From the NCBI GenBank assembly GCA_938038205.1, contig CALHSA010000002.1:1-63133 (forward strand): DNA of 63,133 nt, read 5' to 3'. The notes under the pieces are model-generated. The model did no database searches and was not told where the DNA came from. It saw only the letters and a program-made list of their open reading frames with translations. Below, in pieces: positions 3,521-57,315 of the stretch. Position numbers and translations under genes: made by a program. Numbering within the stretch: position 1 is the first letter of the stretch; every line of letters begins with the position of its first letter. The DNA is from an uncultured bacterium. GTDB taxonomy: Bacteria > Bdellovibrionota_C > UBA2361 > JANWWW01.

Positions 3521-3543
3521 ATGAATTTTTGCGGAGGTTAAAA

Positions 3544-3951
3544 ATGCCAGTGAAGAAAAAGAAGAAAAAAAATACAAAAAAAGGGTTTACATTAATTGAG
3601 CTACTAGTAGTAGTTGCCATTGTTGGAATTCTAGCAGCAATTGCTATTCCTCAGTTTCAAAGATATAGAGAAAGGGCTTTCGATGCTCGAGCTCAATCTG
3701 ATTTGCGAAATTTAATGACTGCCCAGGAGGCGTACTTTGTTGATAACGAATCCTACACATCGACTTTGAATGACTTAGCAAACTTTGGCTTTAGACCAAG
3801 CAGTGGCGTTACAGTGACCATAACATCTGCAGACGGATCATCCTGGTCGGCTTATGCTGAGCATCCCTCAGGAACAAGACGATTCTGCTACAATTCTGAG
3901 GGTGCATCCAATGGAATTGTCTCCGTTGCACGTGGCACAGATTGCCCTTAA
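3544..3951 (+). CDS. pilA: Type IVa major pilin
   Basis: Basic leader, then G|[24 protein letters not shown] prepilin motif; C-terminal Cys pair. Confidence 0.92.
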
Positions 3952-3958
3952 TGTAGAA

Positions 3959-6586
3959 TTAGGTTTGATATAAGGTTAGTGGTCCCGGGTTTTCCCCGCC
4001 CGGGACTTTTTTTATTTTTAAAACCAAACGGTTTTTACTTTCTTCAAACCAAGCTCTACTAGTAAAAGTAGCGATTTTAGCAATTAATAATCTCTTTAAA
4101 AGGTAATTTCCTGATAACTTTATATTCTTTCTTAAGTTGTATTTTTTATCTCTAAGCTTAATCAGAGCGAGTAACTTCAAAATTTTTAGTTTAAGTTTTA
4201 AGATTTTAGTTTTTATATAACCTTCATCGATGTTGAAGTAGTAACGAAGTTTAAATTTACCCTTTGGTTTTAAAAGAAAATGTATAATTAACCAAATCAT
4301 TACAGCGATATTTCTTACTGTTCGCTGAAACACTAAGTTAAATATCGTAGAATCTTTTCTTCGATATTTAAACTTTTTCACTAAATTAAGGGCTATTTTT
4401 TTTAATCCAATCTTGATAACTTGATTCACTGTTGTTTGATTTCGGAACCAAAAGTTTTTTACTGTACTTAGAGTTTTATTTTTAATCTTTAGTGAATATT
4501 TAATTATAATTCTTGATTTTAATAATTCTCTTATATAGCTAGTAGAGTTTTTTACGATTGATTTTAATGATTCCCTTACATTGTAATACTTACAGTCGCG
4601 TTTATGTTTAGTTAGTCCTTCCCTTTTGTTTAAAAGTAATTTAACTCGCAAATAAAATTTCAGTTGATTCAGTCTAATTGACTTTAATATTATCATCAAT
4701 CTCTTGTGGATGAAGGTCTTAATTGAGTGAGTTCCTCTTATTTGGAGATCTCTTATAAGTGAAAGAGTGTTAAATCTTGTTTTAAGTGTTAATAATTTCA
4801 GTAGCGGATTCCTATTATTTTTTAATCTAGCATAAGATTTGGAGAGTGAACCATTAAATGAGGGTGAAAAAATAACTCTGTGTAACTTTCGTAATATATC
4901 ATGGAGCCTATAAAAAATTTTTGTATCAGAGATAAGCTGTTTTACATAAGTTCCTTTAAAAGCTAAGACTTCATTTAAATTAAATTTCACAAGTGGGGGA
5001 GTTCGATTTGGTATCAGTGATTTAATCACCGGATTTCTCTTTTCGCCATAACTTTTTTTGATTGGTAATTTAAAATTAAATGAAACTGCACTATTTTTGT
5101 GTCTGTCTAACGTACCCTCCCCTTTCTCAAGCTTTAAAGTTTTAAGATTTGTATTGGGTTTATTATGTGCACCTTTGTATTTTTTTAATCTAACTATCGA
5201 TCCCTCGGAAAAAAACTTATTTTTGTTGCTCTTTTCTGAATACTTGTCTAAAGTATTCGGCTTTATCTTTCTTGGTTCCTGATATTTGGAATTGGGAGAG
5301 AATATAACATATAGTTTTTTATTTGAGGGGTTTACAGTAGTAAATAAAGGATTTCCGAGAACCAAATTAGTTCTTTCTGTTAGTTCTTTAACCCTTAACT
5401 TATAAGTTTGGTCTTGAGACCTTACGCTTTTATTTGGAGCTGATTTGCTATGTAAGTTAGGAGTTGAGTTATGATTTTTATGTGCATTTTCAAATCCTTT
5501 TAAACTATATTTTGTAATCACTCCCTGGTTGTCGGAGATATTCAGTGTTTCAGGATTAGAATTTAGTATAAAATTGGAACTTTCAATCCGATTCCTTAGA
5601 GGCTGTAATAAGGTATCTAAAGAGCCTTCCCTAGAGAGAGTCAAAAGATTGTGATCTAGTAAAAGAGAAGATTCGAGTGTTTCAATATCGTTGAATATAT
5701 TGTACCTCTGAGGCTTATTTTTTTGAGACTGAAACAACGTGTTTGAAGGCTTTTCCTTTAAAGGTTTAAGATACTTATTTTTATTTCTATTTGCCGTATG
5801 TATTAAGTGCATGGTTAATTTCGGTGGTTTTTGTGCAGGATCTGATTTTGTGCTAGCAATCTCAGTATAATGTTTATTTTCACTTTTATAAAAAAGCGTG
5901 CTTATTTGATCCCTATCAGTAGAGAAAAGAAATCTCTCAGGGAATGATTTAAAATGTTCCCTTATTAACACGTAAAACCTTAACATGTTCATTAAATATG
6001 TGTAAGCCGAGGGTTTCTCTTCAAAGATTGATGACCAAAACCTTTCCTCGGAGCTTATCTTTTTTTGTAGTTGTTCGCCACTCTCACAGCCTATTAATTT
6101 TCTGAAAAAATTCTGTGGAGTTATTCCGCTTAATTTTAGTATACCATCCTCTGAGGCTTTAAAGTATTTTAAAAACTCCTCTAATCTGACTTTGTTCTTG
6201 ATGTTTATTGGAATACACGTAACATCTACACGATCCCCGTTTCTTTGAAATAAATAAGCAACAAGAATTTTACTATTAGGGGTACGATTACCATCAGGTG
6301 TTGAGATTATACAGCAAACTCCTTCTTCTCCAGCTATTAAAAGTTCTTCTAAGCGAAGATACTTTTTCTGAAGGTTTTCTTCACAATGAGCCACTAAATT
6401 CCTAAATTCAAAACCGTTACACATTAAAGTGGATTTACCATTCTCTTCTGGCACTATCTCATAACTAAAAGTAGTAGGTTTGTTAGACACTTCTCGTAGA
6501 AAACCAACAAAGAAAGCTGCGATAGTTTTGGATCCTAGATGTATATCTTTAGTTGGATTAGTACAATGAGTTATGGAGCTCACCAA
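3959..6586 (-). CDS. Large hypothetical protein, 875 aa, with very basic Lys/Leu/Ile-rich C-terminal half
   Basis: 875 stop-free codons in AT-rich DNA; start overlaps the sppA stop; no family motif. Confidence 0.7.
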   Translation of the reverse strand: MVSSITHCTNPTKDIHLGSKTIAAFFVGFLREVSNKPTTFSYEIVPEENGKSTLMCNGFEFRNLVAHCEENLQKKYLRLEELLIAGEEGVCCIISTPDGNRTPNSKILVAYLFQRNGDRVDVTCIPINIKNKVRLEEFLKYFKASEDGILKLSGITPQNFFRKLIGCESGEQLQKKISSEERFWSSIFEEKPSAYTYLMNMLRFYVLIREHFKSFPERFLFSTDRDQISTLFYKSENKHYTEIASTKSDPAQKPPKLTMHLIHTANRNKNKYLKPLKEKPSNTLFQSQKNKPQRYNIFNDIETLESSLLLDHNLLTLSREGSLDTLLQPLRNRIESSNFILNSNPETLNISDNQGVITKYSLKGFENAHKNHNSTPNLHSKSAPNKSVRSQDQTYKLRVKELTERTNLVLGNPLFTTVNPSNKKLYVIFSPNSKYQEPRKIKPNTLDKYSEKSNKNKFFSEGSIVRLKKYKGAHNKPNTNLKTLKLEKGEGTLDRHKNSAVSFNFKLPIKKSYGEKRNPVIKSLIPNRTPPLVKFNLNEVLAFKGTYVKQLISDTKIFYRLHDILRKLHRVIFSPSFNGSLSKSYARLKNNRNPLLKLLTLKTRFNTLSLIRDLQIRGTHSIKTFIHKRLMIILKSIRLNQLKFYLRVKLLLNKREGLTKHKRDCKYYNVRESLKSIVKNSTSYIRELLKSRIIIKYSLKIKNKTLSTVKNFWFRNQTTVNQVIKIGLKKIALNLVKKFKYRRKDSTIFNLVFQRTVRNIAVMIWLIIHFLLKPKGKFKLRYYFNIDEGYIKTKILKLKLKILKLLALIKLRDKKYNLRKNIKLSGNYLLKRLLIAKIATFTSRAWFEESKNRLVLKIKKVPGGENPGPLTLYQT
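3982..4013 (+). terminator. Intrinsic terminator of pilA
   Basis: gtcccggg-ttttccccg-cccgggac followed by T7. Confidence 0.88.
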
Positions 6587-40781: not shown

Positions 40782-43505
40782 TTAACCCAAGCCTTTTAGG
40801 AAAACATCTTTAGAAGTTGATCTCTCGGTGTTTGAGTCGTTTACTCTATCTGCCTCTACTAAATTTGCTCTAACTCCAGGATTAACTCCAAAAGGAGCTA
40901 TTTGAGATAAAATTTGTATTGTCTTCTTGATGTCCTTAGTTTGTGAAAAAACCTCAAAAAATAACTGATTATCATCACCATTGTTAGTTGAAATCCAGTA
41001 CAGTGTTGGTTCTAATGGTATGGCGAAAGCAGAGCTACCTAGATCAGAAGTAATGAAAAACTGAGATTCAACTCCCTTAATCGTTCTTAACTGATTTATA
41101 ACCTCAACTTGTTGGGGTAATAAGTTATATAGCTTTGCAGTTTGATGAAACTTAGCTGGATCTTGACGCAAGAAAATTTTGTAAGCACTATTTTGAATTA
41201 AAGCTTGCCCTCCTGAGCCCTCATAAAAATCATCTCCGCTTTGACTAGCAGCAATAACTATACCTTTTCTCTTTCTGTACAATCTAAATGCTGTTTCAAC
41301 AGTTTGAGAGCTAGTTTTTCCTATTAAATCATGAGCTTCATCAAAAACAAGGATCTTTCTAGTATCTAACTCTTTTGGATCATTCATGACTGTATCGGCC
41401 CATAACATGGCCACTTTCAAAAAAACCTTCTGAAGATTTTGATTCCTACTTAATGCTTTTAAATCAAAAACAATAAACCTCTCCTTTAACTCAAGTTTTC
41501 CAGGCCTATCAAAAAAACGAGAGTAAGTACCTTCGCCGTAATAATCATACAATAGGTTGGCTACTCTCTGGCGAATTGCAGCCATTTCCGGCGTTTCTTC
41601 AATTTTTCTAGGAGCTCTTAAAACATTTACAACGTCAGATAAAATAAACTCCCTTCTCCTGGGCCCTTCAAAATATATCCTATGCGCTTCTATCAGAGAT
41701 TCCAAAACAGCTACTCTCTCAAGTCTATCAGCATTCTCCAAACCAGCCATGTCAAGAATAATATCTGCACACAAATCCAGTAAATCCTTATAATCCTCAT
41801 GATTAGGATCTGGTGGTGTATTTCCAAGCCGTGCTAAAAAGTTCATGGAGGGAGCTTTTGCAGGTGAAGCTTCATAGACTCTTCCTCCAAAGATTTCAGC
41901 TACTTTTACAAAACCACAAGGTTGTCCTTGCATTCCCTTATCAAATATGAAAGTTATAGCAGGTTTCTCAATTATGCCGGAGATAGTTTTAGAAAAATGT
42001 CCTCGGTTTAAATGAATAATCAAAAAATTTAGAAGATAGCTTTTCCCAGCACCCGATACACCGGAAATTAACACATTTGGCGCCACTTGAGAGTCATACA
42101 AATCAAATCCAACTAATTCTCTACACCATAAGCTAGGAAGTATTAAGAGTTTATTTTCAGAACCTTTCCAGTTACCAAATGCTGGAACTAAATTTGGAGC
42201 TAAAGAACTCCGAATATAATTAGTCCACCCCGGACCATCAGTTATTGGATCATAAGCACCAGGAAGGCAGTGTATCATAGCTCCTAGATCTGAAATATCA
42301 TGCACCATACCCCTTGCTCCATTCATCTGGCTTATGTTAGAAATAGCAGCTTCCGCAGCTTTTTGTACCTCCTCTTTAGTTTTGCCAATCAAAAGTTGAT
42401 GAACTCCTATTTTTACTAGCTGACATTTCTTTTCATACATATCCTGAAGGATTTCTTTTATCCCTTTATACTGAGTCCCAAGTTTTTGGTTGTACCCAAA
42501 AGGAGTGTACAATCGCAAAGCTAGCAGATTATTTAGTGTTTCAAGCCTTTTTACTTGATCCTCAAAAGGCTCTTTGGAAAAGGTTACTGTTAAGATATTC
42601 TCGCAGGGTATAAAAAGAAGTTGCATAATTTGAAAAGGGGTCAACTCTCTTGGAATCTTGGTCATTGAAACAACCTTATAGTAAAACCCATCTTTTTTAA
42701 TTAATCCGTTCTCTGGGTGCTCTAGTGGTGTTTCAGAAATTTGATTTGATAACCAATCTAAAGGGTCCCAATTTGGTGTAGGATTAGAAACTGTTCTCCC
42801 CTTTTTTATTGAGTTTCTTTTGACACTTCTTTTATTTAAGATTGGATAAAGAATATCAATTAAATTCTGTGCATTAATACGTTTTAGATAAAGTTTCATG
42901 CTGTTTAACTGATGAACCTTGCCGGCAATTATGTTATTAAATTTTTCAGAGTAAATTTTATACTGAGCCTCTATTCCTAATGATTCTTTTTCGGATGAGA
43001 AAAGTTTAAGAGACTGCTTTATATTTTCTATGAATGTTGAAAAAAAACCTTTTACTCGCCAAGGGGGATCATATCTAAAGGCTATAATATATCTCATCTT
43101 ACGTGGACGAAGCGCATACTCACCTTGCTCTGCAGTTCTTAACAACATATGCGCCCATTTTTTACTTATCCAACCTGCTGTATTATTTAATGGATACTGA
43201 ATTAAATTTTTATAAATTAAATCATGAACATCAAATGTTGTTATAACCGAGATTTGAACCGAAATATCATCAGGAAGTGAGTCTAAAAACCCATGAAAAG
43301 ATTTATTAAATTCTAGTGCATCAGAATCAGAGACATTAACTATTGAAATCGGCTCAAATTCAAAAATTGACCATAAGCTAGCATCATGATGAATAAAGAG
43401 CCCATTCTTTTCATCATAACTGGCATATGGGAGTAAACTTGCAAAACTCTCTTCGTGTTCATATATCCTTTTTTTTTGAATATAACTAAGCGATACCATT
43501 CCCAA
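40782..43505 (-). CDS. TraC/VirB4-family type IV secretion ATPase (F/G-type-like), standalone
   Basis: N-terminal SFASLLPY..YD...GLF; Walker A GVSGAGKS; IFDKG; Walker B VFDEAH; RLYRK; ASQS; YWIST. Alternative start ATG 43499. Confidence 0.88.
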   Translation of the reverse strand: MGMVSLSYIQKKRIYEHEESFASLLPYASYDEKNGLFIHHDASLWSIFEFEPISIVNVSDSDALEFNKSFHGFLDSLPDDISVQISVITTFDVHDLIYKNLIQYPLNNTAGWISKKWAHMLLRTAEQGEYALRPRKMRYIIAFRYDPPWRVKGFFSTFIENIKQSLKLFSSEKESLGIEAQYKIYSEKFNNIIAGKVHQLNSMKLYLKRINAQNLIDILYPILNKRSVKRNSIKKGRTVSNPTPNWDPLDWLSNQISETPLEHPENGLIKKDGFYYKVVSMTKIPRELTPFQIMQLLFIPCENILTVTFSKEPFEDQVKRLETLNNLLALRLYTPFGYNQKLGTQYKGIKEILQDMYEKKCQLVKIGVHQLLIGKTKEEVQKAAEAAISNISQMNGARGMVHDISDLGAMIHCLPGAYDPITDGPGWTNYIRSSLAPNLVPAFGNWKGSENKLLILPSLWCRELVGFDLYDSQVAPNVLISGVSGAGKSYLLNFLIIHLNRGHFSKTISGIIEKPAITFIFDKGMQGQPCGFVKVAEIFGGRVYEASPAKAPSMNFLARLGNTPPDPNHEDYKDLLDLCADIILDMAGLENADRLERVAVLESLIEAHRIYFEGPRRREFILSDVVNVLRAPRKIEETPEMAAIRQRVANLLYDYYGEGTYSRFFDRPGKLELKERFIVFDLKALSRNQNLQKVFLKVAMLWADTVMNDPKELDTRKILVFDEAHDLIGKTSSQTVETAFRLYRKRKGIVIAASQSGDDFYEGSGGQALIQNSAYKIFLRQDPAKFHQTAKLYNLLPQQVEVINQLRTIKGVESQFFITSDLGSSAFAIPLEPTLYWISTNNGDDNQLFFEVFSQTKDIKKTIQILSQIAPFGVNPGVRANLVEADRVNDSNTERSTSKDVFLKGLG

Positions 43506-43550: not shown

Positions 43551-44762
43551 TTACTTTTTTTTTATGATTGGGTCAATTATAGGCACTAAACAGGCTAATT
43601 TTGAGAGTTTATTGATTAACTCATCGTTTAGAACTGTTTGCTCTTCAACAAGTTTGCGCCCGTAGAAATCTACTATCGCTCTTGAAACCACTTGACCTGA
43701 CTCAAGTTGATTTAAGCCCACTACAACCTCATCTTGAGATATTGAGCTATCAATAGAGTTCAAAATCTTCATCATCTGATCTCTACTAATTTTTCTTGGC
43801 ATCGTTAAAATTTTAGCAGTTGGCAACGTCATTAAATCCCGAACAAAAGTACTTAAACTATTTTTAATTTTTTCATCAGCTGGTAGATTATTAATTCCCG
43901 AAATAAAAATATATGCTCCATTTGGCCTAAATATACCTCGAGGAAAAGAAATTGCTTGGAATTCTTTTGCAACCAAAAATACCTGCTCTATTAAGCTTAG
44001 TTCAACACTATGACCCTCATAATAGTTTGCTAGCCTATGAAAAATCTCTGTTATTTCTTTATCTTTAAGCTTGATCGAGGTCATTATTGCTAAATCTTTA
44101 AGACGCGATGAAATAGAGTGGTATGGTAGTCTATCAAAGATAAAATCCTGAATTTGCTGTTTAAAGGCTACTCCTGCTAAGGTTGCAACTAATCCGGCTC
44201 TTAAAGTATAGGAATCATCCATATTAGACATGATGCCTGCACTCAATAATGAAAATTTTTTCAGATTATTCAAGGGTTTCCCGGTTAAATCTTTGAGGTG
44301 TTCCTCATAAAAAGTTAACTCCTCTTTAGTAGTTACAAAAGCTTTAAGATCGAACTGAGAAAACGAACTGTTTTTGAGAATTATTTTTGCAAAGTTTTTC
44401 TTGTCTGGCTTGTTAACTGATTTAAACCAGTAAAAGTAATCTATTATTTTATCTACGAACGCCTGAATGGACGTCTCTTCAGGAACATATTTTAACTTTA
44501 TTCCCTCTGAGTTTGCGAGCTTAACTAGATCCTGACTTGTTGTTACGATTGGAAGATTTGATTTGCTTAAAAGATTTAATTCAGAAAGATCTAGGTCAGA
44601 GGATTCAAGTATTACAACACCAGAATTAGGATCATTAACAACTTCTCCCAAATTATTACCATTAATGCACTCAGTTTTTAATCCTCGATTGTAAAATCTC
44701 TCCAGTAATCCTTCAAGATTCGTGCCCCCTCCAAGGATATAAACGGAGAATTTTTCTATCAC
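43551..44762 (-). CDS. Degenerate receiver/HD-GYP-like protein with DUF3391-like C-terminal module
   Basis: C-terminal LNQLESGQVVSRAIVDFYGRKLV...TVLNDELINKL resembles the module seen on HD-GYP proteins; no HD or GYP residues found. Confidence 0.55.
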   Translation of the reverse strand: MIEKFSVYILGGGTNLEGLLERFYNRGLKTECINGNNLGEVVNDPNSGVVILESSDLDLSELNLLSKSNLPIVTTSQDLVKLANSEGIKLKYVPEETSIQAFVDKIIDYFYWFKSVNKPDKKNFAKIILKNSSFSQFDLKAFVTTKEELTFYEEHLKDLTGKPLNNLKKFSLLSAGIMSNMDDSYTLRAGLVATLAGVAFKQQIQDFIFDRLPYHSISSRLKDLAIMTSIKLKDKEITEIFHRLANYYEGHSVELSLIEQVFLVAKEFQAISFPRGIFRPNGAYIFISGINNLPADEKIKNSLSTFVRDLMTLPTAKILTMPRKISRDQMMKILNSIDSSISQDEVVVGLNQLESGQVVSRAIVDFYGRKLVEEQTVLNDELINKLSKLACLVPIIDPIIKKK

Positions 44763-50449: not shown

Positions 50450-51048
50450 AAATTATACCAAGTATACTAGCTGCAAAACTCTCAAACTTGGCAAATCAAA
50501 TTAAACAAAGAAAAATAACTTACGTACATTTTGATGTTATGGATGGACACTTTGTGCCAGAGATATCTTTTGGTTCATTTCTTGCAAGAGAGTTTGAGAT
50601 AGAACTACCAGAGGTAAAACTAGATGTTCATCTAATGGTTACTAACACTCAGGATCAGATTCCATTCTTTCTTGGTTTAAAAAACGTATCTAGAATCCTT
50701 ATACATTTTGAGGGGAATTTTCATCACCTTAGATTACTAAGACAAATACGGAATGGAGGAAAACAAGCTGGAATAGCTATCAATCCAGAAACAAATCCTG
50801 AGAGTATACAGAGTATTTTAGATTACGTTGATGCAGTTTGTGTTATGTCCGTTACACCAGGTTACTCAGGCCAAAGTTTTATTCCTGGCACTAAAAGTAA
50901 GATCAAAAAATTAGCAGAGTACCGGACAACTTTTGGTTTTAAATACTCAATAATAGTTGACGGAGGGATTACTAATCAGCTTATAGGGGATTTAAGCAAA
51001 ATCGGAGCAGATGAATTCATTATGGGATCCCAGTTTTTTAATGATTAA
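50446..51048 (+). CDS. rpe: Ribulose-phosphate 3-epimerase
   Basis: PSILAA, HFDVMDGHFVP, DVHLMV, MSV.PG..GQ, VDGG. Confidence 0.96.
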   Translation: MKIIPSILAAKLSNLANQIKQRKITYVHFDVMDGHFVPEISFGSFLAREFEIELPEVKLDVHLMVTNTQDQIPFFLGLKNVSRILIHFEGNFHHLRLLRQIRNGGKQAGIAINPETNPESIQSILDYVDAVCVMSVTPGYSGQSFIPGTKSKIKKLAEYRTTFGFKYSIIVDGGITNQLIGDLSKIGADEFIMGSQFFND

Positions 51049-51595
51049 CTTTGGATACATTGTACCATACCTACTTGGCGTTTTTCCAACAGGCATACTA
51101 ATTTCAAAAATTAGAAATCAAGATATTACTAAACTTGGAAGCGGAAATGTTGGGGCCACAAACGTTGCAAGGAATTTTGGTGTTGTATACGGATTGATTA
51201 CGTTATTTATTGATGTTCTAAAAGGTGCTCTTGCAGTGATCATAGGAACAAAGACTTTAAACCTAGATCCGTACACAACTGGTGTTTTTGTTACATTAGG
51301 CCACATTGTTTCCCTTCCTTTTATTCTAAAGGGTGGAAAGGGGGTAGCAACATTCATTGGGACTTTAATAGTGCTCAATCATTATGCTTTAGTAATATTT
51401 TTAATAAGTTTTATTCTCGTTTTTATTTTCTCTCGGTATGTATCACTTAGCTCTTTGGTAGCTGTTTGGTTGAGTGTTTCATTCATTGGTAACCTGCATT
51501 ATATTTTGTTGGCTATGATAATAACTTTAGCTCACCAAAAAAACATTATTCGTTTAATAAAAAAGGAAGAAAGTAAGTTTTATTTTAAACGTTAA
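51041..51595 (+). CDS. plsY: Glycerol-3-phosphate acyltransferase PlsY
   Basis: GSGNVGATN, DVLKG, GH, GGKGVAT, H..NI.RL..E. Start moved to ATG 51041. Confidence 0.95.
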   Translation: MINFGYIVPYLLGVFPTGILISKIRNQDITKLGSGNVGATNVARNFGVVYGLITLFIDVLKGALAVIIGTKTLNLDPYTTGVFVTLGHIVSLPFILKGGKGVATFIGTLIVLNHYALVIFLISFILVFIFSRYVSLSSLVAVWLSVSFIGNLHYILLAMIITLAHQKNIIRLIKKEESKFYFKR

Positions 51596-51865: not shown

Positions 51866-52102
51866 ATGAGCAAACAATCAAGAAAAAAGGATAGAGATTC
51901 TACCCAAACTAATGAGATTGTAAATATGATTAACCATCCTGATCTGCCTTTAATACATAAGCTTGTACTGTTTAATCTTCTATTTAAAAACAAAGAATTA
52001 AACTCTTTCTATTATGAGAACACCCAAGCACTCGAGGAAATTCGCAAGAACTGTGAATTATTAGGCTATAAAGGATGGGTTGGTAAAGAATCTAATAATT
52101 GA
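51866..52102 (+). CDS. Small hypothetical protein, 78 aa, upstream of sctV/flhA
   Basis: ATG ORF, co-oriented, 26 nt before the sctV-like gene. Confidence 0.65.
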   Translation: MSKQSRKKDRDSTQTNEIVNMINHPDLPLIHKLVLFNLLFKNKELNSFYYENTQALEEIRKNCELLGYKGWVGKESNN

Positions 52103-52128
52103 TTTGAGTAAATTATAAGAATTAGAGG

Positions 52129-53997
52129 GTGAGGTATTATGAAGTTTTAGCAGTTATATTAATATTAGGTTTAGGATTTCTTTTAGTCTTACCAATCCCC
52201 CCAATTATATTAGACTTTGTCATTACCCTAAATATCGCCTTATCAATTCTAATGCTTGCCTCCTGTTTATTTACAATTAGAATTAGTAATCTTTTGATTT
52301 TTCCAACTATCCTTTTAATACTAACTCTTCTTCGAATTGCAACTAACGTGGCAACAACTAGGATGATTTTAACTCAAGCTTACGCTGGAGAAATCATAAA
52401 TACATTTGGCAAGGTTTTAATTCAAGGAGAGGTATTAGTTGGATTGATTATTTTCTCATTAATCTCATTAGTGTCGTTAATTATTATATCAAGAGGAGCG
52501 TTAAGAATATCAGAGGTAGCCGCAAGATTCACCTTAGATGCTATGCCAACGAGGCAAATCGCTATAGAACAAGAATTTAAAGAGGGGGAGATAAGTTTTC
52601 GAGAAGCACAGAGGAAACGAGATGAATTAAGAAAGGAGAGCATGCTTTATGGATCCATGGAAGGAGCAATGAAATTTATCCAGGGAGACGCAATTATTAG
52701 TGTTATTACAGTTTTAATAAACTTGGGTGGAGGAATCTTTATAGGTATGAAAAATAAATTAACCTTTCAACAAGCTCTTGAAAAATATAGTGTTCTTACC
52801 GTAGGAGATGGTTTAGTAGCACAAATCCCTGCTCTATTCTTAGCGATCTCTGCAGGTATTATTGTTTCCCGTGTAAGCTCTCTCGCCAATGAGAGTATTC
52901 TAAAGGAAACATTACAGAATATTTTTTCACGAAAAGATACCCTACTTATTACCGGTTTGGTTTTACTCGGAATCAGCCTAATACCTGGAGTTCCCTCAAT
53001 ATCGTTTTTTGTAATTGGATTTGGATTTATAGTTGCTGGATTTTTAATTCCATCTAAACAAACGTTTTATGAAAAACTTGATCCCTCACAGATTTTTCTT
53101 CTTGAAATTCCTGAAGTAAAGTTACAACATTTTTCACTGGATACATTACAAGAATTTTCAGACAGAATATGTAACATCCTCTCAGAGGTACTAAACCTCC
53201 CTATTCCCAAAATCATTTTATCATCTAGTAAAAGCACTGAAATTTATCTAAAAATTAAAAATCGCAAGTATACGATCTCTGATTTAGGTTCAGATAAAAT
53301 GCTTATTAATGCTCCTATTTTTTACGCGCAACTCTTTAAAGATAAAGATATTTCAGAGATACGGATTCCACTTAGTGACATGATTGGACTTGTTGCATCT
53401 GCTTCAACCAAAACTAAGACCTTTGTATCAACTCTTAAAATAAGCTTTTTCTCCAACTTGGAATACGTATTATTAAAGGCTTATGAAACAATTTTAACCT
53501 CCCCAGAGACTTTTATAGATGTAACGGCAGTTTTAAATTTATTAAGAGATTTATCAAAAAGCTTCCCAGATCTTGAGAATATTATTAACTCCGATAAGTT
53601 TTTACCAGTTACAAAAATCTCAAGTCTTATTAGATGCTTGCTAAAGAATAATCTTTCTATTAACAGCTATCCGCTTTTTGTTGAATTAATAAATAATCTT
53701 TGTTTGAGGTATAATCAAACAAGATATGATGATACCCTTACAGTAGAAGATGTTTATACTTTGTTGATTGAAGAAGATTCGGGGGTTTTGGATCTTAGGG
53801 AAGAGGTGCTTTTTGATTTAGTTAGGTTTGGATGCGCTAAGCAGGAGTCAGGTATTGCAAGTGTGCTTGATAGGAATAGAAAATATGGAACGGTTCCTTT
53901 GGTGATTATAGAAGAAAATTCTGATTCTCTTAATAACTTAAGAGTTATTAATCAGTCGAAAAGCTTAAGAATAGATCCTTTTATGTTTAATTTTTGA
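52129..53997 (+). CDS. FHIPEP-family type III export gate protein (SctV/FlhA), divergent, shortened cytoplasmic domain
   Basis: FPTILL..TL.R...NVATTR.IL, EVAARFTLDAMP, LYGSMEGAMKFIQGDA, LTVGDGLVAQIPAL. Confidence 0.92.
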   Translation: MRYYEVLAVILILGLGFLLVLPIPPIILDFVITLNIALSILMLASCLFTIRISNLLIFPTILLILTLLRIATNVATTRMILTQAYAGEIINTFGKVLIQGEVLVGLIIFSLISLVSLIIISRGALRISEVAARFTLDAMPTRQIAIEQEFKEGEISFREAQRKRDELRKESMLYGSMEGAMKFIQGDAIISVITVLINLGGGIFIGMKNKLTFQQALEKYSVLTVGDGLVAQIPALFLAISAGIIVSRVSSLANESILKETLQNIFSRKDTLLITGLVLLGISLIPGVPSISFFVIGFGFIVAGFLIPSKQTFYEKLDPSQIFLLEIPEVKLQHFSLDTLQEFSDRICNILSEVLNLPIPKIILSSSKSTEIYLKIKNRKYTISDLGSDKMLINAPIFYAQLFKDKDISEIRIPLSDMIGLVASASTKTKTFVSTLKISFFSNLEYVLLKAYETILTSPETFIDVTAVLNLLRDLSKSFPDLENIINSDKFLPVTKISSLIRCLLKNNLSINSYPLFVELINNLCLRYNQTRYDDTLTVEDVYTLLIEEDSGVLDLREEVLFDLVRFGCAKQESGIASVLDRNRKYGTVPLVIIEENSDSLNNLRVINQSKSLRIDPFMFNF

Positions 53998-54003
53998 TTT
54001 AAC

Positions 54004-56247
54004 ATGGTAAAGTTTGAAAAAAAAATTTTTGGTAAACAATTTGAGATTGATAGTCATGCAATTGATTTAGTATTTCATAGTGTTTTTAGGGCTACAGATG
54101 TAACTACTGGTAAATCAGTAGCCATAGTTGTTTCTTTATCTCCACTAAAAAATGATCCTTCTGTTCAAGATTCATACATAGAAAGAATGAATCTTGTAGC
54201 GACACTAAATCATCAATTGTACCCAGTTATCAAATTTGGAATCGATTCAAATCTGCATTGTTTCTCTGTTATTAAGGCCCTAGATGGCATAAATATTTTT
54301 ACCAAGGTTCGTGATTTTGCAGAAGCTGAGAGAAGATTTGTTTTAATCCTTAAGGCACTTCTATTTTTTTATAGAAATGGGGTAGCCTTTGGGGACTTAT
54401 CAGACGGATCTTTTATGTTAGAAAGGAGTGGTAACATTAGGTTTATTTGCGGAGTTGGTGATATAAGTAACTTACTTCAAGACTCCTCCACTTACAACAA
54501 AAAGATTGCTAGCATTTACATTCATCCCAATCAAGATCCCTTTAAACGAGATGTATATAGCCTTGGAGTAATTGCAAGTAAACTTTTCACTGGCGAATAC
54601 CCACAGCCTGAATTAAAACTCGAACACTTAAGATTTCCGCCACCTAGTTGGTTTTTAGGACTTGTACCTAAAATGTTGGAGCTCCAACTAACTTCTGTTG
54701 AACAGGTTGCTGAAGAGTATGAAAAATTAAAAACATCAGTAACTGCACTTCAAAAAGTAAACGATATTAAAGCCCCCAAAATTCAAGCTGCTCAGCAAAC
54801 GGTAGTTACGATTGGCCCTCAACTCGCTACTTCAAGTGGAACTATTACTAAAAAAATTAGACATCCTAGCATTAGTAAACCAATAGTTTTCATCGGTGTT
54901 GGAATTGGTGTATTTTTAATTTCACTTATTGTTCTTTACATTCTAAGTTCACTAAAAGGTCCTGTTATCCAAGTTGCATCTCAAAGTCATAAAGATCAAG
55001 GCATTGATTTGCAAACGCTAAAATCACTCTCAAATTCAGATGACCCTGTTTCGCTTAAAACTTTAGTCTCATTATTGGAGGATGCTTCTAATCTTCAAGA
55101 GTATCAACAAATTCATCAAGCAATACTACTTAGGGCAATAAGACAAGGAATGAGTATTTCAGCAGAGTTAGTAAGAAGGTGGGCGCTGAAATTCTTTGAT
55201 CAAGGGCAAAAGTTACCAATCTCACAAATTTACGCTGTTTTTGATGTAATTTTACCAGTTGAGTCTTTTTTGGAAATTTTAAACAATCTCAAATCATTAG
55301 ATGAAACTGCCGCGAAGCTCCTTGCAGTTGGCTATTGTCTTGATCGAAAAGATGACAATTTTACCAAAATAGTTATTTCTGAGTTTTTTAAAAAAGATTT
55401 AAGTATTCAGGAGTTAGTAATATCAGATTCGGATCTTTTAATGGAATTTGGTGATCTTGCTATTAAATATACAGATATTCCTACTGAGAAACTTTTCCTA
55501 ATCCACCATAATCTTATCTCATGGGGCTTTGATCAAAAAGCGCAGCAGGTCAAAGAAGAGCTTGAAGAAAGAGAGTTAAATTATAAGCAAAAAATAATTT
55601 TGAAACTTTTAGATAATCCACTTCCGACTCAGGCAAAACTATTTCTGAGCAGAGTATTAATCAATCAACAGTCATTAGATCTTTTAACTGGCTGGAGAGA
55701 CCCATTACTAGTTGATTTTGCTTTAGCCTCTTCACTCTTTTTTAATGATTCAGCCTCTCTTGAAATAATTTGGAGCTTAATTAATCAAGCTCCAATTCAG
55801 GATCCACTTTTAATGGAAGCTATACAGTTAGTTAAATCAAAATACTCTAATCAAAAACATGAATTTATAGAATTGCTCTCTCTTATACGATTTAATGAAC
55901 ATATTCCACCAATTGAAGGTATTGCTGTGTTGAAAAAATTTCTTCCACAGATAAAAAAAGATAAAAACTTCATTAATCTTATTTTTAATCTGAAAAATCC
56001 AGAACTAATCACTCTGGCTTTTAATCATTTCAAGGATTATTTATCCATAGATATGTTACTCATGTTTCTTACACATCCAGTTCCCGATATAAAAGCAATG
56101 GCAATTGTTTCACTTAAAAATGTAAAAGATATTGGAGCGTTGAAATTAATAATTAACAATTACGAAAAAGAGAAAGACCCTAAAATACGACAACTGTATG
56201 AGGCTAATTTTTGGGTTATTCAAGAGAGAATTAATAAACAAAATTAA
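54004..56247 (+). CDS. Membrane-anchored Ser/Thr pseudokinase with helical (HEAT-like) C-terminal domain
   Basis: VFRATD...GKSVAIVV, FGDLS, RDVYSLGV...LFTGEYP kinase scaffold; TM near aa 294-315; helical repeats after it. Confidence 0.7.
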   Translation: MVKFEKKIFGKQFEIDSHAIDLVFHSVFRATDVTTGKSVAIVVSLSPLKNDPSVQDSYIERMNLVATLNHQLYPVIKFGIDSNLHCFSVIKALDGINIFTKVRDFAEAERRFVLILKALLFFYRNGVAFGDLSDGSFMLERSGNIRFICGVGDISNLLQDSSTYNKKIASIYIHPNQDPFKRDVYSLGVIASKLFTGEYPQPELKLEHLRFPPPSWFLGLVPKMLELQLTSVEQVAEEYEKLKTSVTALQKVNDIKAPKIQAAQQTVVTIGPQLATSSGTITKKIRHPSISKPIVFIGVGIGVFLISLIVLYILSSLKGPVIQVASQSHKDQGIDLQTLKSLSNSDDPVSLKTLVSLLEDASNLQEYQQIHQAILLRAIRQGMSISAELVRRWALKFFDQGQKLPISQIYAVFDVILPVESFLEILNNLKSLDETAAKLLAVGYCLDRKDDNFTKIVISEFFKKDLSIQELVISDSDLLMEFGDLAIKYTDIPTEKLFLIHHNLISWGFDQKAQQVKEELEERELNYKQKIILKLLDNPLPTQAKLFLSRVLINQQSLDLLTGWRDPLLVDFALASSLFFNDSASLEIIWSLINQAPIQDPLLMEAIQLVKSKYSNQKHEFIELLSLIRFNEHIPPIEGIAVLKKFLPQIKKDKNFINLIFNLKNPELITLAFNHFKDYLSIDMLLMFLTHPVPDIKAMAIVSLKNVKDIGALKLIINNYEKEKDPKIRQLYEANFWVIQERINKQN

Positions 56248-56662
56248 CTCACTATTTTTACTAGGTAGCCTGGTAGTGTTATCTTGCTCAAAGGTAGGTA
56301 TACCTCCAAGAAGTAAGTTAGAGCTAATTCCACTGTATCACCTTGAGAATGGCAAGGTAGATTTACTTGAAGATTACCCAGGGTATAAACAGATCATCTT
56401 TTGGAAGACCTCTTGTTTTTACTCCGTCAGAAAATTAAGAGAGTTCTCTAGAGAGAGTAGAAATGGAATTAAACTTGCTGTTTCATTAGATGAATTGGAA
56501 AAAAAGAACAAGGTTATTGAAATAACTAAACCAATACAAAATGTTAAACATTTTTTTTCGGGGAATGGTACTCTTGATGCTGCATGGATTAAAGTAGATG
56601 GTTACGCTGTACCCGTTATTCTTCACATTTCTCCAGAAAATATTCTAATAAAAGTAGAGTGA
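56198..56662 (+). CDS. TlpA-like thioredoxin-fold lipoprotein (CxxS)
   Basis: Lipobox VLSC; IIFWKTSCFYS, AVSLD, cis-Pro AVP. Confidence 0.7.
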   Translation: MRLIFGLFKRELINKINSLFLLGSLVVLSCSKVGIPPRSKLELIPLYHLENGKVDLLEDYPGYKQIIFWKTSCFYSVRKLREFSRESRNGIKLAVSLDELEKKNKVIEITKPIQNVKHFFSGNGTLDAAWIKVDGYAVPVILHISPENILIKVE

Positions 56663-57315
56663 ATTTTCTGGTTCTTCCAAAAGAGAGTTTAAAAGACAAT
56701 GTAGTAATTTTCAAAAACTGCAATATAGACTCGCAAGAGATTAGAGTGGTTGTAGAGAATTGCGGTAGTTTTTTAGTTAAAAATAACAATGGCGTTTGGG
56801 AAATAAATAAAAAGATATTGGTTGTCCCGGTTCAGATCTCATTTGGGATAGGATTTTGTCGACCCCAAACAACGAAAAAAATTCTTTATACAGCTGGATT
56901 TTTTGGGATAAAAATGATTAGTTTTCTAAAAACGCTTAAGTCAAACCACGATTATTCATTGAGTTCGGTTTATAAAAATCCAAAGAAATTTATTACTCCC
57001 GGTATGGAGCAATCCGGTAACTTTTTAGTCACAGATATTGGATTTGATAATTTTTTCAATTACATTCAAATAATAGAACCATCTAAAGCAATTATCTTTG
57101 ATTCTATGGGTAGTTACCCTAACGAGTTTTTCAACCTTATACGTGAAAAAGAGATTTTTATCATTGGGCCAGAACAAGGTTTCTCCTCTTCAGAGCTTGA
57201 TTTCGCAAAAAAAAGGGGAATTCAAGTTGTATCGCTTGGGACTTTCATTTTTCGACCTTTTCAGATAGTTGAATCAGTTTGCTTTTTGAAATATTTAAGT
57301 TGTGTTAACTTTTGA
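56659..57315 (+). CDS. rsmE: 16S rRNA m3U1498 methyltransferase RsmE (divergent)
   Basis: EQSG, IIGPEQGFS..E, VSLG..I.R SPOUT motifs. Confidence 0.8.
   Translation: MNFLVLPKESLKDNVVIFKNCNIDSQEIRVVVENCGSFLVKNNNGVWEINKKILVVPVQISFGIGFCRPQTTKKILYTAGFFGIKMISFLKTLKSNHDYSLSSVYKNPKKFITPGMEQSGNFLVTDIGFDNFFNYIQIIEPSKAIIFDSMGSYPNEFFNLIREKEIFIIGPEQGFSSSELDFAKKRGIQVVSLGTFIFRPFQIVESVCFLKYLSCVNF

Follow-up and report, generated by a model that had tools for sequence, protein, structure and literature searches.

The window analysed here, a stretch of 63,133 nucleotides (nt), is contig C2 of the metagenome-assembled genome (MAG) of an uncultured bacterium of the Bdellovibrionota_C lineage, and it carries a gene for a 622-amino acid (aa) protein of the FHIPEP export-gate family, followed by the genes of a single-pass membrane pseudokinase and of a thioredoxin-fold lipoprotein. 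We regard it as rather probable that this protein of 622 aa acts as SctV-type gate subunit in a third type III-like apparatus, non-flagellar, needle-less and Tad-coupled, in which the pseudokinase would serve as an EssB-like scaffold. At the level of the family this reading appears well supported by gene linkage; the function of the window copy in its own genome is uncertain. Throughout the text, G000 is the source genome of the window, G001 is its sister genome and the other G numbers are relatives.

The linkage was followed in 26 loci, comprising the best FHIPEP match of 20 relatives and six loci with a FliP gene nearby. A full-length orthologue of the pseudokinase was found directly 3' of the FHIPEP gene in 25 of them, across many families, the exception being G007, in which opposite-strand open reading frames (ORFs) follow the FHIPEP gene and the orthologue is on another contig. 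Upstream, the end of tadC was located -13 to 571 nt from the FHIPEP gene in 25/26 loci, G001 being in this case the exception. In six relatives (6/26 loci) the pair was also contiguous with genes for FHA proteins and with sctJ, sctQ and sctRSTU. Since the pair is the tail of a Tad operon and, in these six relatives, adjoins sctJ, sctQ and sctRSTU, the family is assigned to a type III-like export apparatus.

Two layouts were distinguished by Pfam annotation. The gene order in G003, G019 and G039 was small FHA protein, active kinase (Pkinase), TadZ-like ATPase, Flp, RcpC, TadA (T2SSE), TadB and TadC (each matching T2SSF), FHIPEP, pseudokinase and thioredoxin-like lipoprotein, and in these genomes the core cluster was elsewhere and without a FHIPEP gene, one FHIPEP being left over per genome. 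In G018 and G004, tadA/B/C, FHIPEP and pseudokinase were followed by genes for a tandem-FHA protein, a second FHA protein, a YscJ_FliF lipoprotein, a protein of 75-77 aa, a coiled-coil protein of ~165 aa, a FliMN_C protein (SctQ) and the export proteins, namely FliP, a FliQ-family protein (Bac_export_3), an unrecognised membrane protein of the size of SctT and an FlhB-family protein (SctU, Bac_export_2) that matches only the membrane part of its profile. The second FHA protein of these two genomes has a YscD-cytoplasmic-like FHA domain at its C-terminus, an orientation unlike that of SctD. The signature GR..SxxH..NG is present in the tandem-FHA protein, the two other FHA proteins being without that pattern. 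Homologues of this core were detected in the same order in G002, G006, G034 and G038.

These results bear on an earlier first-pass annotation of the same DNA, which had described the gene as an orphan gate, perhaps a second paralogue or an ion-conducting or signalling module, and had pointed to the joint action of a Tad-like apparatus and a needle-less type III secretion system (T3SS) in Myxococcus. The extra paralogue, the conserved linkage to the pseudokinase (25/26 loci in the neighbourhood comparison) and the apt Myxococcus lead all stood, whereas the repurposed orphan was not supported as stated, the pair being a Tad operon tail in relatives. Orphan status is instead a derived state of the reduced genome G000 and of its sister G001.

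The four-gene block and its export-gate protein

Between plsY and rsmE the window holds a block of four ORFs, as follows.

51011-51595: plsY, 5' border of the block
51866-52102 (+): orf78, 78 aa, directly 5' of the FHIPEP gene, with a homologue only in G001
52129-53997 (+): FHIPEP (SctV-type) export-gate paralogue, 622 aa, GTG start, Pfam FHIPEP
54004-56247 (+): single-pass membrane pseudokinase, 747 aa, 6-nt spacer after the FHIPEP gene
56198-56662 (+): thioredoxin-fold (TlpA/AhpC-TSA-like) CxxS lipoprotein, 154 aa, monothiol WCxxS
56659-57315: rsmE, 3' border of the block

The lipoprotein gene overlaps the pseudokinase gene by 50 nt and rsmE by 4 nt, and the ORF coordinates reproduce the 6-nt spacing that had been noted between the FHIPEP and pseudokinase genes. 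The block is flanked upstream by gyrA, gpsA, fmt, rpe and plsY and downstream by rsmE and a DnaE-type polymerase gene; the remaining window is core chromosome, with rpoB, rpoC, L7/L12, ruvB and rml genes in addition to gyrA, gpsA, fmt and rpe. No flagellar or injectisome neighbours were found in the window by ORF and Pfam annotation, in agreement with the first-pass annotation, the flanks being all housekeeping. The orf78 product was without a Pfam or NCBIfam match, and its sole homologue, an ORF of 80 aa, occupies the corresponding position of G001 (31% identity, E value 2e-7; 1/26 relatives' loci), which suggests that it is specific to the G000/G001 family of genomes. A scan for promoters and terminators around the operon gave a promoter count not above that of shuffled sequence.

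The G000 assembly consists of 1.22 Mb in 46 contigs, with ~34-35% G+C, and is 81% complete. Window DNA was present in four DNA runs of one study labelled marine metagenome, with no RNA run listed. A genome-wide count gave three FHIPEP genes, in line with the proposal of an extra, non-flagellar paralogue. The first is the true flhA (710 aa, contig C16), which is part of the flagellar genes fliL-fliM-fliN-fliP-fliQ-fliR / motA / flhB-flhA-flhG-fliA. The second (589 aa, contig C1) is accompanied by genes for a sigma factor, a 278-aa YscJ/FliF-family protein (SctJ), three unknown ORFs and a TPR protein. The window copy is the third. A second sctR-S-T-U set (membrane part) was located on contig C24 and is orthologous, as judged by synteny (80-aa ORF, sctRSTU and conserved histidine kinase), to the sets of G003, G019, G039 and G018 that go with the second FHIPEP; it is here called A-type.

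Several features of the A-type set were recorded in passing. On C1 (L027 4232-8456) it adjoins pilMNOQ, and on C24 (L064 13041-19310) ORFs of 156, 80 and 202 aa precede sctR-S-T-U and the histidine kinase gene; the set is conserved in relatives. The second FliI/SctN-like ATPase gene of G000, counted with this set, is on contig C41 (L104 4317-7003). Both non-flagellar SctU proteins are without a cytoplasmic autocleavage domain, and stand-alone ORFs matching only that cytoplasmic domain (open frames of 87-127 aa) were found near A-type sets in G003 (C2:198352-198564), G039 (C9:131570-131782) and G019 (C50:8804-9016).

The window FHIPEP matched PF00771 over residues 17-525 (E value 5e-112, 376 bits against a cut-off of 29.1) and fell below the cut-offs of both NCBIfam equivalogs, hrcV (TIGR01399, 371.8 vs. 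692.25) and FlhA (TIGR01398, 327.7 vs. 772.1). It is not a flagellar FlhA, since it scores below the TIGR01398 cut-off, flhA is elsewhere (C16) and the two are separated in the tree. The idea that it could be the sole flhA of a scattered flagellar set was thus rejected on account of the flagellar operon of C16, and the second finding that would have spoken against the first-pass annotation, a pseudokinase linkage without conservation, was likewise contradicted by the 26 loci. A chlamydial-type flagellar remnant was rejected as well (NF004571, 175.6 bits vs. a cut-off of 670, with full flagellar operons present).

A tree was calculated from 49 FHIPEP rows: 30 linked to a pseudokinase, 3 taken from flagellar operons, 4 of A-type, 4 injectisome references and 8 further paralogues; the non-linked paralogues were taken from eight relatives only. 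By the Shimodaira-Hasegawa-like approximate likelihood-ratio test (SH-aLRT), support was 100 for the flagellar and for the A-type rows, 99 for the injectisome references and 99 for each of two pseudokinase-linked groups. The window FHIPEP fell within a 21-row pseudokinase-linked clade (SH-aLRT 99), with G001 as sister (100) and then G003 (98), and outside the clade of the four injectisome references; the SctV/FlhA tree that had been suggested therefore places it apart from the flagellar, A-type and injectisome clades. The stem branch of G000 plus G001 measured 1.23 changes per column. A third pseudokinase-linked group, family f8, was very long-branched. As an observation on that family, its loci L084 (G008), L090 (G010) and L091 (G026) have pseudokinase-linked FHIPEPs with end branches of 1.5-3.5 changes per column and eroded loop motifs.

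In the alignment of the same 49 FHIPEPs, conservation across 44 comparison rows reaches at least 85% in 84 columns, of which 70/84 are kept in the window protein, compared with 83/84 in G003. The substitutions comprise G141T (MPGKQ to MPTRQ), D147E and D149E (IDAD to IEQE), D178E (MDGA to MEGA) and R547I, and most are common to G001. All charged-loop motifs (RFxLD, MPGKQ, IDxD, MDGA and KFxKGD) are present, with substitutions at G141, D147, D149 and D178 and Q for K. The alterations MPTRQI, IEQE and MEGA read in the first pass were recovered in this alignment; the change of KFVKGD to KFIQGD is also real but, with Q for K, it is typical of the entire pseudokinase-linked clade rather than peculiar to the window copy. 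ESMLYGSM was, as had been proposed, nearer to the injectisome references (ESQLYGS) than to the flagellar rows (EAEFYGA).

The protein has an 8-helix membrane domain with a conserved cytoplasmic loop, a shortened cytoplasmic domain and a degenerate stretch of the last ~57 residues. By sequence, matches to solved SctV/FlhA chains were restricted to residues 5-315 (YscV at E value 5e-77), which agrees with the earlier description of the cytoplasmic domain as short and divergent. In a structure model with a mean predicted local distance difference test (pLDDT) value of 75.2, the membrane domain and cytoplasmic residues 336-565 were confident, and residues 566-622 were below 50. The predicted region ~333-565 matched SctV/FlhA cytoplasmic domains with Z scores of 9.0-13.0 over 198-240 aligned residues (CdsV 13.0; YscV 11.8-12.2; FlhA ~12; InvA 11.7); the 22 best structural matches were all cytoplasmic domains of this type, and the next unrelated row reached a Z score of 8.3. 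The ORF is intact in both G000 and G001 at just 48% identity. Because 70/84 columns are kept, the acidic changes are D to E, the SctV_C fold is predicted and the ORFs have remained intact over this divergence, the window gate looks functional.

Two further loci of the window were noted at a distance from the block. A solitary TraC/VirB4-like ATPase gene (TraC_F_IV, P-loop_TraG; 907 aa, 40782-43505 (-)) is paired with the gene of a 403-aa protein of no known family (43551-44762 (-)), amid housekeeping genes, with rml genes upstream and a leucyl-aminopeptidase-like gene and gyrA downstream; no conjugation genes besides this one were noticed in the window. The second locus encodes a protein of 140 aa (3529-3951 (+)), which bears a type IV pilin N-methylation motif, beside an 875-aa protein without a Pfam family (3959-6586 (-)).

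The pseudokinase and the CxxS lipoprotein

The model of the 747-aa protein (pLDDT 82.5) comprises a kinase fold at residues ~10-245, a disordered Ser/Thr-rich linker (247-292), a transmembrane (TM) helix (294-316) and an all-alpha HEAT-like solenoid (336-746). From the basic residues that precede the TM helix, our reading of the alignment is that the solenoid is probably periplasmic. Pfam gave only sub-threshold matches to Pkinase (21.7 bits vs. a cut-off of 31.7) and HEAT_2, although a Foldseek search of the whole model placed the kinases PknB, MARK (MARK3) and NEK7 on top with probability 1.0. A bilobal kinase fold is thus predicted, but without the catalytic residues: the window protein has VAIVV, in which the beta-3 Lys is gone, FGD (FGDLSDGSF) in place of HRD and GVG in place of DFG, and the consensus of 18 aligned orthologues reads L-W, CGDLxxxSFW and MGS at the catalytic sites. 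Family-wide, neither the catalytic Lys nor the Asn, DFG or the His and Arg of HRD is present, and the APE and DVFSLG motifs are retained. As the catalytic motifs are absent throughout the family, the protein is a pseudokinase, and the kinase called dead in the first pass is indeed so both in the window protein and in the orthologue consensus.

The family is widespread in the phylum, represented here by 124 species genomes that are all of one class. At E values of 1e-40 or lower the pseudokinase was detected in 116/124 genomes, and in 69/73 of those at least 90% complete; four of the eight genomes missing it at this threshold show weaker matches. In public data, 658 representatives at 50% identity were recovered (E value of 1e-30 or lower; 1.84 billion proteins), and most of the 150 of these that were listed match nearly the whole profile, a few being fragments. 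A search with a 6-row alignment gave 16 related loci, all titled Bdellovibrionota, Oligoflexia, delta-proteobacterial MAGs or similar. Two members named by NCBI, among four close relatives recovered when 7999 candidates were scored with the profile, are both called 'hypothetical protein'. The ORF is intact in G001 at 43% identity. In the ESM Atlas, the solenoid (333-747) gave generic HEAT-repeat clusters only, at 0.89-0.91 and within the range of shuffled proteins. Co-folding of FHIPEP 318-622 with pseudokinase 1-250 scored 0.00 in a run without controls, which counts neither for nor against binding.

The window lipoprotein has a lipobox-like VLSC and the motif WKTSCFYS. In 13/13 orthologues the lipobox Cys, the Cys and Ser of CxxS and HxFSGN were invariant or nearly so, with the CxxS Cys and Ser strictly invariant. 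A Pfam scan of the window protein gave no match; the family profile hidden Markov model (HMM) recognised its ORF at E value 1.8e-35, and orthologues in G003, G019 and G039 matched AhpC-TSA (E value 6e-12), Thioredoxin_8 (2.7e-13) and Redoxin (1.2e-9). Membership of the thioredoxin-like profiles is thus indicated indirectly, via orthologues, and together with the 13-row alignment this bears out the earlier description of a CxxS thioredoxin fold. The resemblance to TlpA/AhpC-TSA periplasmic lipoproteins consists in the lipobox Cys, the conserved FWATWC context and the Pfam matches of the orthologues. The difference is that here the site is a monothiol CxxS and that the location 3' of the pseudokinase is fixed in one clade only; because CxxS is found in all 13 aligned members, the protein is not a classical CxxC reductase. 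The gene followed that of the pseudokinase in 14/20 clade-I loci and in 0/6 clade-II loci, and it is missing in G001.

At the end of the Tad-sctV-pseudokinase operon of G039, the thioredoxin-like lipoprotein gene adjoins a gene (L044, 4660-5352 (+)) whose 230-aa product contains a pesticin/phage-lysozyme-like domain (PF16754, E value 9e-9) and is a possible candidate for a cell-wall-degrading cargo.

Scattering of the operon in the source genome and its interpretation

In G000 the pieces of the operon are spread over at least four contigs. Contig C7 carries genes for a PP2C phosphatase, an FHA protein, an active kinase and TadZ, followed by prs; the kinase has ALK, HRD, DFG and SPE motifs and a C-terminal TM helix, and the PP2C gene (L102 5028-5933 (-)) is directly 5' of the other three. 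This group amounts to a complete Thr-phosphorylation module heading the former Tad operon. Contig C13 carries genes for RcpC, TadA, TadB, TadC and a 211-aa ORF, its TadA being 71% identical to that of G003. Contig C31 holds the homologue of the tandem-FHA protein, the second FHA protein, a 76-aa protein and an SctQ-like protein. At this last locus sctJ has dropped out exactly between its neighbours, and no sctRSTU follows the SctQ-like gene; the two gaps are internal to the contig, and contig C70 of G001 shows the same layout with the same losses. As the within-contig gaps recur in the sister genome, the loss is shared by the G000/G001 family and is not an assembly gap; relocated sctJ and sctRSTU genes may nevertheless lie in what is not assembled of the two MAGs. 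Beside the FHA/SctQ-like remnant, FliG is encoded as two ORFs of C31, FliG_N (123 aa) and FliG_C (134 aa), ~220 nt apart (L069 6913-7317 (-) and 7540-7911 (-)), which may reflect a split gene, a frameshift or an error of sequencing.

The genome-wide search for sctRSTU and sctJ that the first-pass annotation had called for recovered the flagellar and A-type sets but not a dedicated third one. Counts made by hand gave three FHIPEP and three FliP genes in G003 and in G019, two and two in G039, and three and two in G000 and in G001, the last two genomes having two YscJ/FliF genes. In a sample of 41 genomes, FliP matches numbered three in 29 genomes, two in 10 and four in 2.

Under the favoured reading, the genes of the apparatus would form, phylum-wide, the last part of a Tad (Flp) pilus operon of the Kil-like kind, in the order (PP2C), small FHA, active Ser/Thr kinase, tadZ, flp, rcpC, tadA, tadB, tadC, sctV, pseudokinase and, in one clade, CxxS lipoprotein; the tandem FHA, second FHA, sctJ, sctQ, sctR/S/T/U (membrane part) and the two small proteins would adjoin it or be elsewhere in the genome. 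The SctV ring with SctRSTU/J would form a proton-driven gate, whose output may be coupled to the Tad pilus machine in the way proposed for the Kil pilus and the needle-less system (T3SS*) of Myxococcus. The dead kinase would be a structural trans-membrane scaffold on the EssB/YukC plan, its cytoplasmic domain docking FHA-domain proteins and the gate and its periplasmic solenoid reaching the Tad alignment complex and the lipoprotein, and the neighbouring active kinase and phosphatase, with the phosphothreonine-competent FHA protein, might switch assembly. In G000 the operon has been broken up, with sctV, pseudokinase and lipoprotein between plsY and rsmE and the Tad genes on two other contigs; the SctQ-like protein, the 76-aa protein and the FHA proteins have been retained and the dedicated sctJ and sctRSTU lost. 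Its gate would then either borrow the A-type SctRSTU/J or function without such a core, together with the Tad platform.

A number of points weigh against this interpretation. Its functional steps, namely physical coupling, a scaffold role, a phospho-switch and protein export by any member of the family, are drawn from gene linkage and analogy, and the likeness to T3SS* comes from published descriptions rather than from a sequence comparison with mxan_2434-2464. In the clusters of G018, G004, G039, G019 and G003, Pfam (E value of 0.001 or lower) recognised neither a secretin, needle or translocon family nor an ATPase of the FliI/SctN type, although small unannotated ORFs remain. Type III ATPase genes numbered three in G018, two each in G004, G003 and G000 and one in G039, that is, one below the FHIPEP count in G000, G003 and G039. 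With profiles from relatives, no dedicated (third) SctJ, SctR, SctS or SctU was found in the G000 assembly, only flagellar and A-type proteins scoring, though with an 81% complete MAG the genes counted as missing could sit in the unassembled part; we know of no precedent for an export gate without its own SctRSTU core. As for the window protein itself, it is fast-evolving, as the stem branch indicates, residues invariant elsewhere are changed (G141, D178 and R547) and the last subdomain (566-622) is not confidently modelled. Finally, the tree leaves the deep order of the FHIPEP clades unresolved, the monophyly of all pseudokinase-linked rows having a support of 14.

More tentatively, the parts could be joined in a hybrid machine, in which a SctV ring and an EssB-like pseudokinase would be built into the Tad basal body and the gate would feed cargo to the Tad pilus or piston, in one envelope-spanning complex switched by Thr phosphorylation; the reduced family would then have kept a SctV-pseudokinase-FHA-SctQ subset without dedicated SctRSTU. 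If this were so, the subset would be a minimal FHIPEP device not seen before.

A different explanation, which we find doubtful in general but which is a live rival for the window copy itself, is that the FHIPEP ring, the pseudokinase and the lipoprotein form a stand-alone ion-conducting or signalling device, for instance one that senses the state of the envelope or the pilus, without an SctRSTU core and without export gating. It would account for the absence of dedicated sctJ and sctRSTU in G000 and G001 alongside the kept FHIPEP, pseudokinase, FHA and SctQ-like genes, and also for a membrane domain and charged loop that are conserved (70/84 columns) in a protein whose cytoplasmic domain has lost its last subdomain. 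However, the contiguity of the pair with full sctJ/Q/RSTU in 6/26 loci implies that the ancestral role was in an export apparatus, the A-type sctRSTU and sctJ still in the genome could be shared, and the missing genes are missing from a MAG that is just 81% complete. To our knowledge, no FHIPEP protein works alone.

It is less probable still that the block is a decaying relic of the Tad-linked system in a shrinking genome, with its ORFs open and its function lost. Such a decay would fit the small genome (1.22 Mb assembled), the operon in pieces over at least four contigs with its partner genes lost, the long branch, changed invariant residues and degenerate C-terminus of the gate, and the lipoprotein missing in G001. 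Nevertheless, all four ORFs are intact and their tight spacing (6 nt) and overlaps are preserved, the acidic changes are conservative (D to E), and the Tad genes are well conserved, as seen in the identity of TadA to that of G003. Moreover, FHIPEP and pseudokinase are intact in G001 at 48% and 43% identity, so both frames have been kept open over a long divergence.

The least convincing proposal is that the third FHIPEP exchanges with the second one in the A-type set, or with the flagellar FlhA, so that substrate choice would be altered and the pseudokinase would act as selector. It takes up the surplus of FHIPEP genes in G000 (three, against two each for FliP, YscJ/FliF and type III ATPase), but it is at odds with relatives in which each FHIPEP has its own sctRSTU set, with the old and separate character of the three FHIPEP clades and with the 26 loci, none of which links the gene to A-type or flagellar ones.

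Comparison with known systems

Work on how the Kil pilus and T3SS* cooperate in contact killing has so far rested on one model organism with separately encoded systems. A phylum-level lineage puts this link into one operon, from tadC to sctV and pseudokinase, which may show how a Tad pilus couples to a needle-less exporter, and which suggests concrete, testable choices of physical coupler, namely the pseudokinase, and of switch, made up of kinase, phosphatase and FHA protein. It also adds a conserved, unannotated pseudokinase family and would extend the pairing of pseudokinases with FHA scaffolds in secretion machines beyond type VII. In addition, the reduced genome G000 amounts to a natural deletion experiment on the type III parts that a genome can lose and still keep the gate.

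With the canonical SctV/FlhA proteins (YscV, CdsV, InvA, MxiA and FlhA), the window protein shares the FHIPEP membrane domain and the cytoplasmic fold. It differs in being shorter, with a degenerate last subdomain, in scoring below both equivalog cut-offs and in forming part of a clade of its own, and its family is linked to tad and pseudokinase genes instead of to sctU, sctN and gatekeeper genes.

The PpkA-PppA-Fha1 module of type VI secretion systems (T6SSs) offers a parallel for the regulatory genes, in that the genes of the machine are accompanied by those of a PP2C phosphatase, an active Hanks kinase and an FHA protein competent for phosphothreonine. In contrast, no T6SS genes are present here, and an extra dead kinase is found beside the gate.

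A pairing of pseudokinase and FHA protein is known from mycobacterial MviN-FhaA. The architecture of the window pseudokinase resembles that of EssB/YukC from type VIIb secretion (T7SSb), with an N-terminal cytoplasmic pseudokinase fold devoid of catalytic residues, one TM helix and a helical domain beyond the membrane, encoded together with FHA proteins, the tandem-FHA and FHA genes being the next ones in clade II. In the sections of the EssB literature drawn on here, EssB is described as a pseudokinase with a TM helix and a helical ectodomain, whose pseudokinase domain binds the FHA domains of EssC (PMC3694306; PMC10765036). The likeness is one of architecture only, since Pfam at E values of 0.01 or lower gave only Pkinase and HEAT_2 and no sequence membership of the YukC/EssB family. 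Furthermore, the outer domain is here a HEAT-like solenoid of ~410 residues, the machine is of the type III/Tad kind in a diderm and not of type VII in Firmicutes, and FHA binding is proposed by analogy.

A close parallel is with the T3SS* and Kil systems of Myxococcus. In the parts of the published accounts used here, the Kil Tad pilus and the needle-less T3SS* of M. xanthus are stated to co-localise and act together, both being needed for prey lysis (PMC12075869), the Kil loci are rich in FHA proteins and are compared by their authors with T6SS (PMC8460266), and a review gives the co-occurrence of T3SS* and Tad as restricted to Cystobacterineae (PMC10849154); in the same portion of the Kil paper FlhA is not mentioned and type III is mentioned once (PMC8460266). 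The literature search returned no account of FHIPEP/SctV genes within Tad loci, nor of a pseudokinase next to SctV, the gene table of the 2022 paper that defined T3SS*, which may list a kinase-like gene, being outside that search. The systems share a basal and export apparatus of the type III-like kind in which no secretin, needle or translocon is recognised, a tie to an FHA-rich Tad pilus and their occurrence in predatory delta-proteobacteria-like lineages (PMC12075869, PMC8460266, PMC10849154, as far as these were covered). A core without secretin or needle together with a Kil-like Tad locus is found in the relatives, and in G000 it is recognised only via the orthology of scattered genes. 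The differences are that the Myxococcus systems are at separate loci whereas here the tie is genetic, with sctV after tadC in one operon (25/26), and that here a membrane pseudokinase always accompanies sctV, SctU is without a cytoplasmic domain and no ATPase gene is recognised in the cluster. Needle-less, Tad-associated type III-like systems are thus already known, and what we rate as new is the genetically fused layout and a new core component.

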